Source: Pyrodictiaceae archaeon
Lineage (GTDB): Archaea; Thermoproteota; Thermoprotei_A; Sulfolobales; Pyrodictiaceae
DNA: 64,000 bases
Direction of reading: 5' to 3'
Assembly (NCBI GenBank): GCA_027036135.1
Contig: JALVSY010000007.1
Location: forward strand, 4,880-68,879
Within the stretch, counting starts at the first letter, position 1, and every line of letters starts with the position of its first letter. Made by a program: the position numbers and the translations under genes. The notes beneath the pieces are model-generated. The model was not told where the DNA came from. It did not search any database and saw nothing but the letters and a program-made list of their open reading frames with translations. Positions 35,977 through 46,904 of the stretch are shown here, in pieces.

Positions 35977-36170
35977 GAGCAGAGCGAAGACGCTATTACT
36001 TAGTAAATAATACGGCCTAAGGGAAGAAGATTCCATAAAACAAGGGGTGTTGCCTAGGCTGGTGGGTGTGATTATACGTTGTTTTGGAGAGTAGCAAGGG
36101 AATACATTATTGTCTTGTATCTCTGGCCTTATTAGTCCGCGGTAATATAGTATTGAAGGGATGTATTGTC

Positions 36171-36539
36171 TTGAGTGCTCGGTTGTACCGGGAGCTTGTT
36201 GCACGTGCTAAGCACTTCTACAAGATTAGTGGGTACGATGTACGCGAGGGCCGTTACGATATCGCCTTGTTTCATCTCGAGCAGGCTGCTCAGCTAGCCC
36301 TCAAGGCTTATCTCCTCCGAGAGGTCGGGGATTTCCCTCGCGTTCATAGCCTCTACGACCTAGTAGAGGTTAGCGGTAATGATTGTTTGAGGAGGCTTGC
36401 CGAGAAGTACTGGTACGTAATAGATATACTCGACGACGCCTATACCGGTTCCAGGTACTTTGTGCGCCGCTACGGAGAGAAGGAGTACACGGCGGCGAAG
36501 AGGTTTGTAGAGGAGGTGTTTAGATGCACGGGTATCTAG
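36171..36539 (+). CDS. HEPN domain protein
   Basis: YDIALFHLEQAAQLALKA...PRVHSL...SRY; TTG start at 36171. Confidence 0.88.
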   Translation: MSARLYRELVARAKHFYKISGYDVREGRYDIALFHLEQAAQLALKAYLLREVGDFPRVHSLYDLVEVSGNDCLRRLAEKYWYVIDILDDAYTGSRYFVRRYGEKEYTAAKRFVEEVFRCTGI

Positions 36540-36841
36540 AGTTTCTGCGAAAGAGGCGACGCGACCTAGAGGAGAACCTCGACAAGTACCTTTTGGCTCT
36601 GAAGAGGCTTGCTGAGCGCTATGGCGGCAGAGCCTATCTCTTTGGCTCGGTGCTCAGCGGCGAGGCGATAGCAGCGAGCGATGTTGATGTGTTGATAGAG
36701 GTTCCCGATAATGTTGATAGGCTAGGAGTTCTCCACGAGGCCCGCAGACTTGTACCTAACACACTCGTGGAAATACACGTGCTCAACGCCTCCGACGCTG
36801 AGGTGTTCAAGAGGCTCGTTAAGAGGATAAAACCACTCTAA
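36524..36841 (+). CDS. MNT nucleotidyltransferase
   Basis: YLFGS...SDVDVL...EIHV. Confidence 0.9.
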   Translation: MHGYLEFLRKRRRDLEENLDKYLLALKRLAERYGGRAYLFGSVLSGEAIAASDVDVLIEVPDNVDRLGVLHEARRLVPNTLVEIHVLNASDAEVFKRLVKRIKPL

Positions 36842-36926
36842 GCCTTTTACGAGGCATAGTGTCTCTAATAGAGTACCTTCTGTTTCCAAGGCTCTCCGGG
36901 TCAACCTAGTTACCGGGGATACGGCC

Positions 36927-37369
36927 ATGGTCTCGTCTGTTGAGGAGTATAGGTTGCTCCTAGCGAGGAGCAAGATGATGCTGGAAGAGGCCCGGGATGC
37001 TCTGAGGAAGAAGAGATACGACGTAGCAGTATTCCTGGCTGAGCAAGGCCTCTAACTCTACCTAAAGGCCCAGCTCTATCGCCTACTAGGCGAGTATCCC
37101 GGAACCCATGGTATTAGGCGCCTACTTGCTCTTCTCGCGGAGAGCCTTGGGGCAGGGCCGAGGAGGAGATAGCCAGGTTTTCTAGGGAGAAGAGACCCTT
37201 CCTCTCAGAGCTTGAAGACGTCTATATCGTTGCTCGCTACACGCCTAGGACATATACAGAGGAGGATGCGCGAGACATACTCGGGCTCGTAGAGGAGGTA
37301 ATAGGGCTTGTCGAGAAACTTCTACGAGCTAGTACTAGAGGTGGCGAAGGAGAACGGGAAGCTGCTTAG
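36927..37369 (+). pseudogene. HEPN pseudogene
   Basis: YDVAVFLAEQGL*LYLKA with a TAA at 37053 and later frameshifts. Confidence 0.8.
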
Positions 37370-37652
37370 GAACTGGAGAAACCTAGCCAAGCAAGTAGCA
37401 AGAGCGGTGAAGGAGATATACCCGGGGGCCAGGGTCTTTGTTACTGGTAGCGTTGTACGCGGAGAAGCAATAATGGGTAGTGACATAGACATAGTGGTTG
37501 CACTACCCCATGAACCAGGGCCAAGGGAGGCAGCAAGAATAATAGCCCATATATGGGAGCGCCTAAGCCTACCAGACACTCATCCCATTGAGATACACGT
37601 AGTCTCCGAGAAACAACTAAACAAGTACAAAGAACTCATAGAGATAGAATAA
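37308..37652 (+). CDS. MNT nucleotidyltransferase
   Basis: TGSVVRG...SDIDI...IEIHVV. Confidence 0.88.
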   Translation: MSRNFYELVLEVAKENGKLLRNWRNLAKQVARAVKEIYPGARVFVTGSVVRGEAIMGSDIDIVVALPHEPGPREAARIIAHIWERLSLPDTHPIEIHVVSEKQLNKYKELIEIE

Positions 37653-41688: not shown

Positions 41689-42183
41689 GTGTTGGAGGTT
41701 GCAGCCGAGAGAGTGGCTGAGAAGAGCGAGCTAGAGGAGGTACTTGGCCCGGTAGAGCCTCCGAAGCCCCTGGAATGGGTCCCTGTAATAGCTAGCCTGG
41801 GTATTGAGAGGAAGCGTGTCAGGCTACGTAGTGGCGAGACCCGGGTCTATGAGAGCTACCGGGTGAGGCTACCCAAGGAGGTTGTTGAGAAGCTAGGTCT
41901 CCGAGGAGAATCAACAGTGCTCCTTCAAGTAGCCCGGCCCCGCTGGTACCACCTCCTAGACTACAGGGAAGAGCCCCTCCGCACCAGGTTCAAGCAAATA
42001 AAGAAGCCATGGATAAAGGCAGAGATATGCCTCCTAGGCCTCGCCCCCCAGGATCTATGCAATGACTATAAGACAATCACAGTCATAGCCTCCGAGCAGG
42101 AGCTACGGGAACTAGGACTGGAGCCAGGCAAGCCAATAACGCTCAGAGAACTACTAGAGAGGGCTAGAAGCATGAGAGGCTGA
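41689..42183 (+). CDS. AbrB/MazE-like swapped-hairpin protein with C-terminal extension (copy 1)
   Basis: SGETRVYESYRVRLPKEVVEKLGL; paralog of 42551-43042. Confidence 0.75.
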   Translation: MLEVAAERVAEKSELEEVLGPVEPPKPLEWVPVIASLGIERKRVRLRSGETRVYESYRVRLPKEVVEKLGLRGESTVLLQVARPRWYHLLDYREEPLRTRFKQIKKPWIKAEICLLGLAPQDLCNDYKTITVIASEQELRELGLEPGKPITLRELLERARSMRG

Positions 42184-42550: not shown

Positions 42551-43042
42551 TTGGTGACAATTGTGGAGACGCTGAGCGTTGAGGAGAGGGAGAGGCTCAT
42601 AGAGGAGCTACGCCGAGAGGCCAGGCCGGAGCCACTGAGGTGGAGGCTCTTCCTAGCGGAGGCTATGAGGACCCGTATGAGGAAGAGGCTGAAGAGCGGC
42701 GAGACCCGGGTCTACGAGGGCTACCGAGTAACCATACCCCTGGAGCTCGCCAAGGAGCTAGGCCTAGACCAGGACCCCGAGCTAGTAGTAGCAATAGCTA
42801 AGCCCAGATGGTACCACGGCATAATCTACGAGGATGCTACCCTCAAGCTCTTCCACAAACTCCCCCCATACGCTAAGGCGGAGATATGCCAACTGGGCCT
42901 CGCTCCCCAAGACATGTGCAGAGAATACAGAACCATAACCGTGGTAGCTAGTGAGGAAGAGCTAAGGAGGCTAGGACTGGAGCCAGGCAAGCCCGTGACA
43001 CTCAGGGAGCTCCTCGAGAAAGCCAAGAACCTCGCAACCTGA
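42551..43042 (+). CDS. AbrB/MazE-like protein (copy 2)
   Basis: SGETRVYEGYRVTIPLELAKELGL, PRWYH and KAEICxLGLAPQDxC shared with copy 1. Confidence 0.78.
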   Translation: MVTIVETLSVEERERLIEELRREARPEPLRWRLFLAEAMRTRMRKRLKSGETRVYEGYRVTIPLELAKELGLDQDPELVVAIAKPRWYHGIIYEDATLKLFHKLPPYAKAEICQLGLAPQDMCREYRTITVVASEEELRRLGLEPGKPVTLRELLEKAKNLAT

Positions 43043-43375
43043 TCCCTCTCCGCAGCAAAGATATGCATTAGCCGAAGTAGTCGAGGAAGCTGCAACGCCT
43101 ACCCATGGCCCCTAGCCAGAGCCTCCGAAGAGCCCATAGCCCTTGGGCGCGTATTTCTCCATGTACCCTACATACCAGCTTATCCGGTTACCGCTGTTCC
43201 CGATACCACCCTTAGTGGCTAGGAGCATGCATGTAGAGCATACCCTCATTGAATCTCCACTGGTATAGAGGTGGGCCTCTTGTATCCCAGGGGTACACAA
43301 GGTAACACTTTCTCCTAGAAACAATGGATGCGATAACACCTAGGCACAGATAACGAGGTACCCTAGAGCCCCATG

Positions 43376-43390
43376 AATACAAAGAAATGC
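43376..43390 (-). terminator. U-rich tract at the 3' end of the candidate RNA
   Basis: Minus strand reads GCATTTCTTTGTATT immediately after the hairpin arm. Confidence 0.4.
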
Positions 43391-45305
43391 GGGAGGAGCC
43401 CACCCCTAACCACACAGAGAGACCCAAATCAAGCCCTGGAAGCCCCTCCCCAGGGAACCCCTTCTCTCGGGGAAGGCGGCCGGCCAACCCCGAGGGGCGG
43501 GCCCCCCGGGCCCGGAAAGAGAGCCACGCATCTGGGAACCCTTGTTCTCCCCCAAGCACCCAGAGAGACACGCCCCGGGAAACCAGGCGGCCACAGAGCC
43601 CCCGCCAGGCCAAGGAGCCCGGTTCCCAGCGCCGAAGAAGACACCAGGAGAGCCCCGAGCCCAGGGACACTGCCCAGGCCCCACGGGAAGAGACCCCTAA
43701 AGTAGGAGCCCGCCACAGCGGAGGCCAATGCCAGTCCCTAAGGCCCACCCTCTCCCACGGCACGGAGGGGCAGGCCCAGCAAGCCCTAGGAATCCCCGAG
43801 TCCCCCGGAGCACCCCAAGGAACCAGGGGCTACGGCGAACCAGCGGCCCCTGGGCCTCCCCGCGGCTAGAGCCCCAAGGCACCCTAGAAGGCACCAGGGA
43901 AGCGATGACCATCCCCAGCCGCCTCAGGGATGCGTGCCAACACCACCTCGGGCCCTGGGACATCTAGGCCAGCTGGCACAGCCCCAGCCCACGGGGTGGT
44001 AGCGGAGCAACCTCTCGTCGAAGATGCGCGTCCCATGGCCCCGGCCAAGGACCTCTACCCCAAGGCTTTCGCGGAGCCCTGGCAGCCTCCGCGATACGGC
44101 CTGGGCAGAGCCCCGTAGAGTCTCTCGGTGCCGCCAGAGACCCCCAGGGCCGAGACCTAGCGGCCCTGGAAACCTTGCTCCGTCGAGGAGAACCCCTCCC
44201 AAGCACTGCTGCCAAGAGGCGAACAGCTGTTATAAGCCCCTCATGCGGTTGCCGAAAAAGTCCCCGGCCCGAAGCGGCGCTCCCAAGGACCCGGCCCAGG
44301 AGGTGAATCCTCCCCGGGCACCCTCTAGGGATCCAAGGGGCTCTCCTATACACCGAGGCTCATGCGGCCTCGGCGGAGGCCCTCCGGGGTCCCTAGAGGG
44401 CTTGGTCCCTGAGGCGCCTTGGGCCAGGGGCTTTCGGCAACCGCGTACTAGTGGATTAGCTTCGGGGCCTAGCGCGGGAGGGTTCTCCTCAACGGAGCCG
44501 TGGCACATTGCTATCATATTATTGCCGGGAATCCCTGGTAGCACCGAGAGACTCCACAAGGCCCATGCCCAGGCCTCTAAGGCAGCGGGGGCTGCCGGGC
44601 CCTACTCGCCTTGGGGCAAGAGCCCTTGATCGGAGCCAGGGGCGCTTGTTCCTCGGCGAAGAGGTTGCTCCTCCCCCGGAGCCGGGGCTATGTCAGCCAG
44701 CCTGGTCTCGGGGCTTCGAGGGTGAGCTGACACGCGCCCCCTGAGACGGCGGGGATGGTCCCTGGGTGCCTCCTTGGGGTGCCCTGGAGCACCTAGCCGC
44801 AGAGGGAGACATAGAGGGCCTAGCTAGCCCGCCGTTAAGCCCCTGGTCCCTGGGGTGCTTTCCCGGGGGTCCTCGGAGGAATCCCTGGCTCGCTGGGCCC
44901 CCTTGGTTCCTCCGCGCCGTGGGATGCTGATTGGTGGGCTTGGGCCCGGCTTGGTCTCCATGCCGTGGCGGGTCCCGGTGCCCTCCCCGCGGAGGCCTCT
45001 CTTGGTTCCTGGGTCTCGGGGCTCTCCTGGTGCTCTCGGCGCTGGCTAGGCACTGTGCTCCCTGGCCTAGCAAGGGCCTGTAACCAACCTGGTTTTCCTC
45101 GGAGCGCGTCTCTCTGGGTGCATCACCCCCGTGCGTGGCTCTCTTTGAGGATCCTCAGGGCCCACCCTCCCCGCGGGACTCTTCCTTCCCCGAGAGGGGG
45201 TCCCGGGGCGGGCGGGGTCCAGGGCTCCCTGCTCCCAGGAGGCAGGCTGGCTCCTCCTGGGAGAGGGGCTGTGTGGCTAGGGGTGGGCTCCCCTTTAGGC
45301 CTCCT
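43391..45305 (-). ncRNA. Candidate ~1.9 kb rod-like structured non-coding RNA (giant imperfect inverted repeat)
   Basis: 43395-44359 aligns colinearly with the reverse complement of 44367-45291. GC-rich, no credible ORF, and mismatches mostly G.U on the minus strand. Confidence 0.65.
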
Positions 45306-45319
45306 TTCTACTGTTTTGA

Positions 45320-45340
45320 TAGTGCTTTAAGAGTTAGGGG
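45320..45340 (-). promoter_or_regulatory. TATA-like box for the candidate RNA
   Basis: Minus-strand CTTAAAG (45325-45331), about 25 nt upstream of the hairpin's 5' arm. Confidence 0.45.
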
Positions 45341-45506
45341 GTATGAGGAGTGCTGGGTTCTCTCGCGGTTTCTTGGTGCGCGACGTGCCCGGTGGTGTAG
45401 GGGTGGTGCGGGGAGAAGGAGTGCTATGTACGGAGGGGCTTCGGGGCGCGGTGTTGCTTCCTGGTTCGAGGGGAGCATTGTTTCCCTGTCTTGGCTCCCC
45501 GTGGGG

Positions 45507-45896
45507 CTAGGTGAGGGCTTTTCCTGTCTCCTGCCTCATGTGCGGGGGTGCTCCGTCGTGGCCGTCTAGGTGTCTGCGTAGATAATCTGCTACCTCTTTT
45601 ACCTCGTCTAGGCTCACTGTGAAGAAGTACTTGTTCTCGATGTAGAGCGTGGCGGCCTCGCGAGTAGTGTCTACTAGTTGGTCTAGGCACTCGTCGCTCT
45701 CTAGGCACTCCTTTATAGCTTCCAGGCCTAGCTCGGAGGCCACGAAGCTATAGGTCTCCATCACTGCTAGCTCCATGCCCACGAGTGCTAGGAGTTCCTC
45801 CCCCAGCTCCTCTTCCTCGACGCAGAGGTCCCCAGCCTCCCTGCACACTAGGCTCGCTACTAGCCTCGGCGAGTACCTACCCAGTGGCTCCACCAT
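45507..45896 (-). CDS. Acidic hypothetical protein, paralog of 28116-28496
   Basis: Shared Cys/Glu motifs; co-oriented upstream of the candidate RNA. Confidence 0.75.
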   Translation of the reverse strand: MVEPLGRYSPRLVASLVCREAGDLCVEEEELGEELLALVGMELAVMETYSFVASELGLEAIKECLESDECLDQLVDTTREAATLYIENKYFFTVSLDEVKEVADYLRRHLDGHDGAPPHMRQETGKALT

Positions 45897-46220: not shown

Positions 46221-46664
46221 CTAGCGTATGAGTAGGTTGCTTGTGTCTAGGCCCTTTGTCTCTAGGAACTCTACTAGTTTCCTATCGCGTGTGACTAGGA
46301 TCGCGTCTTCGTGGAGGGCTGTAGCGTAGAGTATACAGTCAAAGATATCGGGGTGCCCAAGTGCCTTCAGCTTAATCGCGGTCTTGATGTGCTCTATACG
46401 GGGCTGTATAAGCCCCACATCAACTTCTAGGAGTAATGCGATCAAGGCCTCGGACGCGGGCTCGGGTACCTCGCGGAGCCCTTGCTTCATCATCTCCTTT
46501 GCTATCTTTGCTGCGAGTTCGGGTAGGAGCAGGATAGGGTAATAGATATCTGCGCCTAGCTCTTCTCTTAGCCTGGCTACGTCCCTGGCTTCTAGTCCTT
46601 GTACCTTTATACCGAAGAATGGTAAAAGATAAGTGGTATCGATAACGGCCTTTCTTCTCTGCAA
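46221..46664 (-). CDS. vapC: VapC PIN toxin
   Basis: VIDTTYL, HPDIFDCILYATA and VTRD. Confidence 0.9.
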   Translation of the reverse strand: MQRRKAVIDTTYLLPFFGIKVQGLEARDVARLREELGADIYYPILLLPELAAKIAKEMMKQGLREVPEPASEALIALLLEVDVGLIQPRIEHIKTAIKLKALGHPDIFDCILYATALHEDAILVTRDRKLVEFLETKGLDTSNLLIR

Positions 46665-46667
46665 GGC

Positions 46668-46904
46668 CTACTGGTCCTCCTCGCTTATCCTGGTAAGTTC
46701 CTCGCTCTCCTCCTCGAACTCCTCCACGGTTGTCTCAGCCCAGTAGCTCCTCTCCTTGAATAGGCGGGGGAGGGGGCGAAGCACTAGCTCGTTTCCACGG
46801 ATGCTAAGTAATAGTCTGTCGCCTTCGCGTAGCCCTAATTTCTCAACAATCTCCTTTGGGAGATAAAGCGCATATTTCCGGCCAACCCGGATAACCAGGC
46901 TCAA
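46668..46904 (-). CDS. AbrB/MazE antitoxin
   Basis: RVGRKYALYLPKEIVEKLGLREGD. Confidence 0.9.
   Translation of the reverse strand: MSLVIRVGRKYALYLPKEIVEKLGLREGDRLLLSIRGNELVLRPLPRLFKERSYWAETTVEEFEEESEELTRISEEDQ

Follow-up and report, generated by a model that had tools for sequence, protein, structure and literature searches.

The DNA analysed here (hereafter the window) is a stretch of 64,000 nucleotides from a Pyrodictiaceae archaeon (assembly GCA_027036135.1, contig JALVSY010000007.1, positions 4,880 to 68,879). It harbours, at positions 43395-45291, an imperfect palindrome of 1.9 kb, which is most likely the gene for a very long rod-shaped noncoding RNA (ncRNA) of a vent archaeon living near 100 °C. 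We consider it probable that the element represents a stand-alone gene, encoding a long hairpin ncRNA of minus sense, and that the pairing of this RNA is under selection. Such an RNA family seems to be undescribed. Full-text literature searches, with supplementary files outside their scope, returned no description of such an element.

Strand-specific G.U bias of the hairpin arms

Positions 43395-45291 constitute a single long imperfect inverted repeat. Its terminal arms, at 43395-43417 and 45269-45291, show 96% complementarity, and further nested arm pairs lead from there to an apex near 44336. The predicted hairpin RNA body comprises 1897 nt of the minus strand and runs in RNA sense from 45291 to 43395, with the 5′ arm at 44336-45291, the 3′ arm at 43395-44335 and the fold apex at sense position 956. 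In the predicted fold of the minus strand we found 778 pairs, of which 729 are symmetric about the centre. The element is therefore, as in hairpin RNA (hpRNA) loci, a long inverted repeat foldable as one hairpin. The predicted fold also places an A-rich apical loop at 44502-44526 (minus strand; sense GGCAAUAAUAUGAUAGCAAUGUGCC).

An earlier note, made from the sequence alone, had claimed that transitions between the two arms mostly give G.U pairs on the minus strand, and had proposed an arm alignment with a binomial test. Full alignments of the arms confirmed the claim. In the first, the left arm was aligned globally with the reverse complement of the right arm, and the mismatch classes were counted in plus orientation. 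Among its 848 aligned columns 692 were identical and 60 were transversions. Sixty-six transitions (left A/right G 34, left C/right T 32) correspond to G.U pairs on the minus strand, versus 30 (G/A 21, T/C 9) corresponding to G.U pairs on the plus strand. The second alignment was split at the apex of the predicted fold and yielded 63 minus-strand versus 31 plus-strand G.U transitions, besides 72 transversions (two-sided binomial test, p=0.0013). A hand count of about 35 versus about 10, also given in the note, had the direction right. Its size did not hold, since the ratio is about 2.1:1 and not about 3.5:1, and the counts are about double. The three pairs of segments quoted there as examples are all present in the sequence, namely GGCGAACCAGC near 43833 versus the reverse complement of GCTAGCCCGCC near 44825, GCCCCGTAGAG at 44110 versus CTCCACAAGGC near 44550, and CCCCCGCCAGG near 43600 versus CCTAGCAAGGG near 45067. 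Transversion mismatches are symmetric (29 versus 31 in the first alignment), and thus the skew is limited to transitions.

The two strands also differ in predicted stability, a comparison that the note had suggested. The minimum free energy of the minus strand is -1436.3 kcal/mol, with 80 G.U pairs, versus -1292.2 kcal/mol and 36 G.U pairs for the plus strand, so the minus strand folds better by 144 kcal/mol. At 100 °C the values are -222.5 kcal/mol for the minus and -170.4 kcal/mol for the plus strand. Neither a ratio near 1:1 nor a local compositional skew accounting for the whole bias, the two outcomes named in the note as contrary to its claim, was seen. The ratio is 2.1:1, and the keto skew of the minus strand is -0.018 and +0.017 in the 10 kb on either side; these flanking values are near zero, hence the bias does not derive from a regional compositional skew. 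Within the element the keto skew is +0.053, a net value that is unremarkable among 2-kb windows (rank 26 of 125).

Homologues were searched with BLAST and with core-pattern searches in 29 genomes of the family and 322 other genomes of the class. Four further copies of the hairpin were found. Two belong to the same genus as the window: G004, a complete genome with a copy of 1016 nt (L010, 9066-10081), and L028, a metagenome contig of 2277 nt with a copy of 1556 nt. The other two belong to a second genus (g11), in which G023 (L011) carries a copy of 665 nt and G018 (L012) one of 626 nt, cut by the contig end. Similar to the window (63:31), G.U exceeds A.C in equivalent orientation in L028 (55:16, p 4e-6), G004 (41:6, p 2e-7), G018 (24:7, p 0.003) and G023 (17:12, p 0.46). 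The same strand is favoured in five out of five elements, significantly in four, with a sum of 200:72; the five copies are homologous and hence are not independent trials. The sense strand is also the more stable one in all five, by 41-146 kcal/mol at 37 °C and by 20-55 kcal/mol at 100 °C. An excess of G.U pairs is the signature expected if the pairing of an RNA is under selection.

Composition, conserved core and flanking signals

The GC content is 0.66-0.71 inside the element and 0.46-0.59 in its flanks, and 49.7% in the whole genome. All hairpin copies have a GC content of 67-70%. The element thus has its GC raised to the level of rRNA, as stable RNAs of a hyperthermophile do (0.67-0.70 versus 0.497 in the genome). 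Other long islands with a GC content of at least about 0.67 in this genome include two contigs with rRNA operons (0.68-0.69) and the signal recognition particle (SRP) RNA (0.672), which is encoded at another locus. An origin of the element from rRNA processing stems was considered and rejected, as the core and the upstream region have no similarity elsewhere in the genome. Further GC-rich islands were observed in the same genome at C7:898696-899635, C7:890508-891077, C30:282463-283416 and C2:1728-3792 (GC 0.656-0.679), and none of them matched Rfam at gathering score.

The element is single-copy in an assembly of 2.2 Mb that is 99.6% complete, and a genome-wide scan for near inverted repeats detected no second long GC-rich hairpin. 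The genome also contains a 408-nt inverted repeat with 72% identity, the arms of which (C7:1128382-1128777 and 1129553-1129951) lie about 800 nt apart. No tRNA was found in the window, and Rfam 15 gave no match in it at gathering score. Up to an E-value of 1, Rfam returned only 3 and 2 sub-threshold matches of chance level, and no ribozyme family among them.

Unpaired bases of the sense strand comprise 416 A, 231 C, 216 G and 219 U (1082 in total), and A is enriched in each of the five copies. Unpaired bases rich in A are typical of structured RNAs. The apices are AT-rich with CAAUAA-like runs in all homologues. In the window the 5′ arm contains A and U at frequencies of 0.20 and 0.11, and the 3′ arm at 0.09 and 0.22. 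All five copies possess a 5′ arm that is rich in A (0.20-0.25) and poor in U (0.06-0.13), with the reverse in the 3′ arm, so that the A-U pairs are strongly oriented. That an A/C-rich 5′ arm might avoid misfolding before the 3′ arm is made was rejected as an explanation, because the arms alone fold at least as well as random sequences (5′ arms -0.41 to -0.53 kcal/mol/nt, random sequences of the same composition -0.41 to -0.49).

Comparison of the homologues with blastn revealed conservation of only two blocks of about 60 nt, which face each other across invariant internal loops in every copy. In the window the 5′ block is located at 45112-45177 of the minus strand (sense 115-180) and includes the palindromes CCCGCGGG (45170-45177) and TGAGGATCCTCA (45146-45157). 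The 3′ block is located at 43470-43525 (minus strand, sense 1767-1822) and includes CCGGGCCCGG (43506-43515) and GGCCGGCC (43478-43485). The consensus of the 5′ core is ...GGCCYY-ga-GG-a-UCC-uc-AR..., and that of the 3′ core ...cc-GGG-c-CC-gg..., after which an asymmetric loop contains GGCCGGCC. The core of every copy bears four perfect palindromes, each 8-12 nt long, namely CCCGCGGG or a variant of it, GAGGATCCTC, CCGGGCCCGG and GGCCGGCC; in the window they span 45146-45177 and 43478-43515, and GAGGATCCTC occurs once. The first palindrome varies between copies (CCCGCGGG, TCCCCGCGGGGA, CCGCGCGG, CCCGCGCGGG) and remains self-complementary. Palindromes are not enriched over the element as a whole (9 in the window's copy, 12.3 on average in shuffled sequences). 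At facing core positions the two arms carry different invariant sequences, GAGGAUCCUC versus CCGGGCCCGG, which argues against gene conversion from arm to arm, as conversion would erase the difference.

Outside the core the rod cannot be aligned between species, and every copy is nonetheless about 81-83% self-complementary. The inner arms of the window and L028, two members of one genus, are only about 50% identical, and each of the two elements is 81-82% self-complementary. Helices adjoining the core loops display compensatory changes between genera. The copies of G023 and G018 are 86% identical and share 213 consensus pairs, of which 18 changed on both sides with the pairing kept, and 30 changed on one side through G.U, versus 0-3 double changes in slid controls; this result is favoured by the fact that the counted sequences themselves served to derive the structure. 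In a strand-neutral recount of the same two copies, 14 double changes keep Watson-Crick pairing. The tblastx comparison of the homologues gave scattered matches with no consistent frame, and no conserved open reading frame (ORF) was detected.

Upstream of the stem, on the minus strand, the motif CCCCCTAACTCTTAAA is located at 45326-45341, 34 nt before the first paired base. The pattern CCCC.AA..CTTAAA is invariant in the upstream flank of the sense strand in five out of five copies, about 30-35 nt before the first paired base. This 15-nt pattern has one site in the 2.2-Mb genome and ten sites in the 29 genomes of the family, five of which are the hairpin loci. The five other sites were examined as candidates and discarded, as no GC-rich sequence follows them. 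The shorter AACNCTTAAA has 13 sites in the genome, several of them shortly before ATG or GTG triplets resembling start codons. We take the pattern to fit the archaeal promoter consisting of a transcription factor B recognition element (BRE) and a TATA box, with a start about 25 nt downstream. The motif may therefore act as a promoter, with a putative transcription start near 45300-45306.

Just past the 3′ end of the stem lies a T-rich tract, TTTCTTTGTATT, at 43376-43387 of the minus strand, a possible oligo-U terminator. Downstream flanks are rich in T and G, with runs such as TTTCTTT, in the four homologues that have one, and are otherwise poorly conserved; this composition is compatible with oligo-U termination, and the T-rich tract may serve as terminator. 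Nothing in the downstream flank suggested a promoter for the opposite strand. The prediction of the minus strand as the transcribed one is supported independently by the promoter-like motif and by the composition of the loops.

Taken together, the recurring bias, the promoter-like motif on one side only, the A-rich loops, the covariation and the inverted unit of G004 described below support the proposal of the earlier note that selection acts on the pairing of a single-stranded molecule of minus sense. According to the model that we propose, transcription would proceed from the minus strand, starting about 25 nt past the BRE/TATA-like motif and ending near the T-rich tract. The RNA of about 1.9 kb would fold back to one rod of about 780 base pairs, about 10% of them G.U, and is predicted to remain folded at 100 °C. 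At the RNA level, where G.U is tolerated, selection would keep the arms complementary, so that G.U would accumulate on the sense strand and A.C on the other. The functional module is probably the core, located about 115-180 nt from the 5′ end, together with its partner about 75-130 nt from the 3′ end. This core could be recognised by a protein, or by another copy of the same RNA pairing through the exposed palindromes. The long rod varies in length and sequence and may represent a generic double-stranded body.

Distribution and genomic neighbourhood

The 3′ core pattern was found in four of the 29 family genomes with up to 2 mismatches, and in none of the 322 remaining genomes of the class with up to 3. 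The BLAST search with the G023 element revealed no further homologue among the 29 genomes. In genome G002, of the same genus as the window and 68% complete, a contig carries the neighbour gene and the upstream motif and breaks off after the first 20 nt of the stem. Both core motifs were detected in two records, which are metagenome-assembled genomes (MAGs) of a Pyrodictium sp. and of a Pyrodictiaceae archaeon. DNA of the locus was present in nine contig runs from hydrothermal-vent metagenomes of three studies. The element is therefore present as DNA in an assembled chromosome, in four further genomes and in the DNA runs of three studies.

Several candidates were rejected. The match of G042:C69 to the 3′ core, with 3 mismatches, lacks GAGGATCCTC and GGCCGGCC and was counted as a false positive. 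Matches of a looser pattern in G006 and G042:C97 lack GAGGATCCTC, and the repeat scan revealed no long hairpin there. Thirteen bacterial matches of the pattern lack the other core motifs. In viral contigs the 3′ core had no match, and the short 5′ motif had 32 matches, none of them with CCGGGCCCGG within 3.5 kb.

Assemblies tend to break at the hairpin. Contigs of the runs X2 and X3 terminate at about 43301-43347 and 45167-45273, contig G002:C184 includes no more than 20 nt of the stem, and G018:C22 terminates within the 3′ arm. As short-read assemblies break at the hairpin, its absence from MAGs is weak evidence. The start of contig G018:C131 is an exact reverse complement of the 5′ arm and looks like a mis-join. 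The positions concerned are 43395-45291 of the window, the contig ends of L012 and L078, and positions 1-56 of L074.

The directly upstream neighbour of the hairpin is an ORF of 129 aa at 45507-45896 on the minus strand, co-oriented with it and without Pfam family. In the window and in L028 the hairpin unit is located downstream of this ORF in the same orientation, and a homologue of the 129-aa ORF adjoins the hairpin in G004, G002 and L028. Nevertheless, the ORF was rejected as an obligatory partner, as it is confined to genus g1 and was not found in the hairpin carriers of g11. In G004 the order and orientation of the 129-aa ORF and the his operon are unchanged. The hairpin unit, including its promoter motif, is inverted there and convergent with the ORF. 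The bias is still 41:6 on the own sense strand of the inverted unit. The genes of the left flank in G004 are found about 186 kb away in the genome of the window, hence the hairpin is located at a synteny breakpoint. Neighbouring genes of the hairpin in the second genus encode a PLP-dependent enzyme and a metallo-beta-lactamase-fold protein.

Neighbouring ORFs scanned with Pfam were AbrB/MazE-like, PIN, PLP-enzyme, metallo-beta-lactamase, D-aminopeptidase or acetyl-CoA synthetase, or belonged to no family; no integrase, transposase or replication gene was detected among these flanking ORFs. Just past the 3′ end of the hairpin, the window encodes two tandem paralogous ORFs on the plus strand, at 41689-42183 (164 aa) and 42551-43042 (163 aa). 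The first possesses a SpoVT-AbrB/MazE-like domain (30.8 bits, Pfam cut-off 24.7), and the second has a weak match to it below the cut-off (18.6 bits, E 0.0018). The pair is linked by a 172-nt direct repeat with 70% identity and has no counterpart at the G004 locus. On the minus strand, at 46221-46904, a PIN-domain ORF (147 aa) follows an AbrB/MazE-type ORF (78 aa), which is typical of a VapBC-like toxin-antitoxin pair. Short ORFs at 36084-37652 of the plus strand resemble, by eye, pairs of HEPN and minimal nucleotidyltransferase proteins.

Genes for processing of double-stranded RNA (dsRNA) were also searched. RNase III (PF14622) and the dsRNA-binding domain dsRBD (PF00035) had no match in the 99.6%-complete genome; the controls matched 8 and 9 of 14 genomes. 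As neither was found, a long duplex RNA could persist without meeting the usual nuclease. PIWI (PF02171) was present in three of the 29 family genomes, none of them among the five hairpin carriers. A role as precursor of Argonaute guides was therefore rejected, PIWI being found in no carrier, and RNase III and dsRBD being unmatched in the genome of the window.

Alternative explanations and relation to known systems

Several observations weigh against a minus-sense RNA gene whose pairing is under selection. Mismatches of A.C type on the proposed sense strand are common, with 31 in the window and 12 versus 17 G.U in G023. Population variants from the sequencing runs X4 and X5 comprise 18 single nucleotide polymorphisms (SNPs) inside the hairpin. 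Twelve of the SNPs are scorable transitions, of which 7 give G.U on the minus strand and 5 on the plus strand. On the minus-strand fold, 6 of the 18 SNPs are unpaired, 6 keep a pair and 6 break one; on the plus-strand fold the corresponding numbers are 9, 5 and 4. Population SNPs do not discriminate between the explanations. The strand-neutral recount of G023 and G018 gave 28 switches from Watson-Crick to sense G.U versus 18 from Watson-Crick to A.C, and the first covariation count was favoured by its own derivation, as stated above. Only five of the 29 family genomes and none of the 322 others of the class carry the element, which is therefore not essential. No RNA run was among the sequencing runs matching the locus, and the putative roles of the promoter and terminator signals are read from the archaeal consensus.

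The asymmetry alone is compatible both with selection that tolerates G.U and with deamination of the non-template strand linked to transcription; in the latter case, too, the RNA would be of minus sense. In this alternative the arms would be kept complementary at the DNA level, by arm-to-arm gene conversion or template switching, and the G.U excess would be a by-product of strand-biased deamination (C to T, A to G) of whichever strand is single-stranded more often, for example the non-template strand during transcription; RNA pairing would then not be selected. We regard this as unlikely, although transcription raises C-to-T changes of the non-template strand severalfold in bacteria and heat speeds deamination. 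That only transitions are asymmetric fits deamination, as do the frequent A.C-type mismatches, the 7:5 ratio of population transitions and the 28:18 count of recent changes. However, A prevails at unpaired sense positions, where C and U are about equally frequent, and A and C are abundant in the 5′ flank, both the opposite of a deamination footprint. In both genera the invariant sequences of the core differ between the two arms, a difference that conversion would homogenise. The flanks have no regional skew, and the bias follows the unit inverted in G004, which is only suggestive, as it depends on the direction of replication there. This alternative, too, needs transcription in minus sense.

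More specific proposals about the nature of the RNA are improbable at this stage. The element might encode a new architectural RNA, that is, a DNA-encoded rod of kilobase size with a viroid-like core, the palindromes of which would lead to dimers or higher assemblies at about 100 °C, or it might be a rod-shaped RNA replicon of hyperthermophilic archaea that was domesticated in the chromosome.

It is quite improbable that the element acts as DNA, either as a cruciform or single-stranded DNA hairpin in replication, recombination or inversion, or as the hairpin end of a mobile or viral element, with G.T tolerated in single-stranded DNA. The position at a synteny breakpoint, the inversion between congeners and the AT-rich apex are in agreement with such a role, and the four core palindromes could bind dimeric DNA-binding proteins. 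However, a complementarity of only about 81% between the arms disfavours extrusion of a cruciform, and the element is single-copy. Its Pfam-scanned flanks encode housekeeping or toxin-antitoxin functions and no integrase, transposase or replication protein, and the 3′ core has no match in viral contigs. A GC content of rRNA level, A-rich loops and a promoter-like motif on one side also lack a rationale at the DNA level. It is very improbable indeed that the element is an inverted duplication in decay, derived from one gene or from two divergent or convergent units, with a hairpin of no function. The many ORFs of 60-200 aa that can be drawn on both strands are expected in a sequence of 70% GC. 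By tblastx no frame is shared consistently between the homologues, and conservation in blastn is restricted to the two core blocks. Complementarity is kept although the arms are about 50% identical between species, and the G.U bias would be left unexplained.

If the RNA of the hairpin gene is made, it would be, to our knowledge, the longest near-continuous RNA duplex known as a conserved cellular gene of prokaryotes. It would raise the question of what use a cell has for a dsRNA of 300-900 bp, and of the means by which this dsRNA forms and survives at about 100 °C, the growth temperature of its hosts, in which the searches described above detected no RNase III, dsRBD or Argonaute. The conserved core of about 120 nt offers a small handle for experiments. 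Since the element breaks short-read assemblies, such elements are probably under-counted in MAGs. The strand-specific count of G.U versus A.C on an inverted repeat can also predict which strand is transcribed.

Among known systems, DNA palindromes include cruciforms, hairpin telomeres of linear replicons and the ends of miniature inverted-repeat transposable elements (MITEs) or insertion sequences (IS). Similar to them, the element has two inverted arms separated by a short spacer, and it is located at a rearrangement breakpoint. However, its arms are 81% complementary with a strand-specific wobble bias (63:31), and not near-perfect and unbiased. Unlike MITEs, IS and hairpin telomeres, it is single-copy and has no mobility gene among its Pfam-scanned flanks and no viral relatives.

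Viroids and Obelisk-like RNAs have a rod fold, variable length and a conserved central region that bears palindromes on both strands of the rod. The element resembles them in its rod-like predicted fold, its variable length and its conserved central region with palindromes. Nevertheless, it is chromosomal DNA, single-copy and preceded by a promoter-like motif, with no ribozyme family (Rfam, E up to 1) and no conserved or Oblin-like ORF.

Eukaryotic hpRNA loci are long inverted repeats that are transcribed to hairpins and diced to small interfering RNAs (PMC8728187). Similar to these loci, the element is an inverted repeat of kilobase size that would give one RNA with a long imperfect duplex. 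However, RNase III and dsRBD are unmatched in the genome of the window, and PIWI was not found in the five carriers. The element also differs in its conserved internal-loop core and its hyperthermophilic archaeal host.

OLE, GOLLD, ROOL and HEARO are large bacterial ncRNAs of unknown function, and 6S and SRP RNA are rod-like RNAs with regulatory or structural roles. The element shares with this group that it is stand-alone, large and conserved, with covarying helices, conserved loops and the GC content of a stable RNA. In contrast to them, it has no Rfam 15 match, and the SRP RNA of the genome is located elsewhere. Its architecture sets it apart as well, being an almost uninterrupted hairpin of 300-900 bp in which sequence conservation is limited to about 120 nt. 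The element is grouped with the large prokaryotic ncRNAs of unknown function, as a member with unusual architecture.

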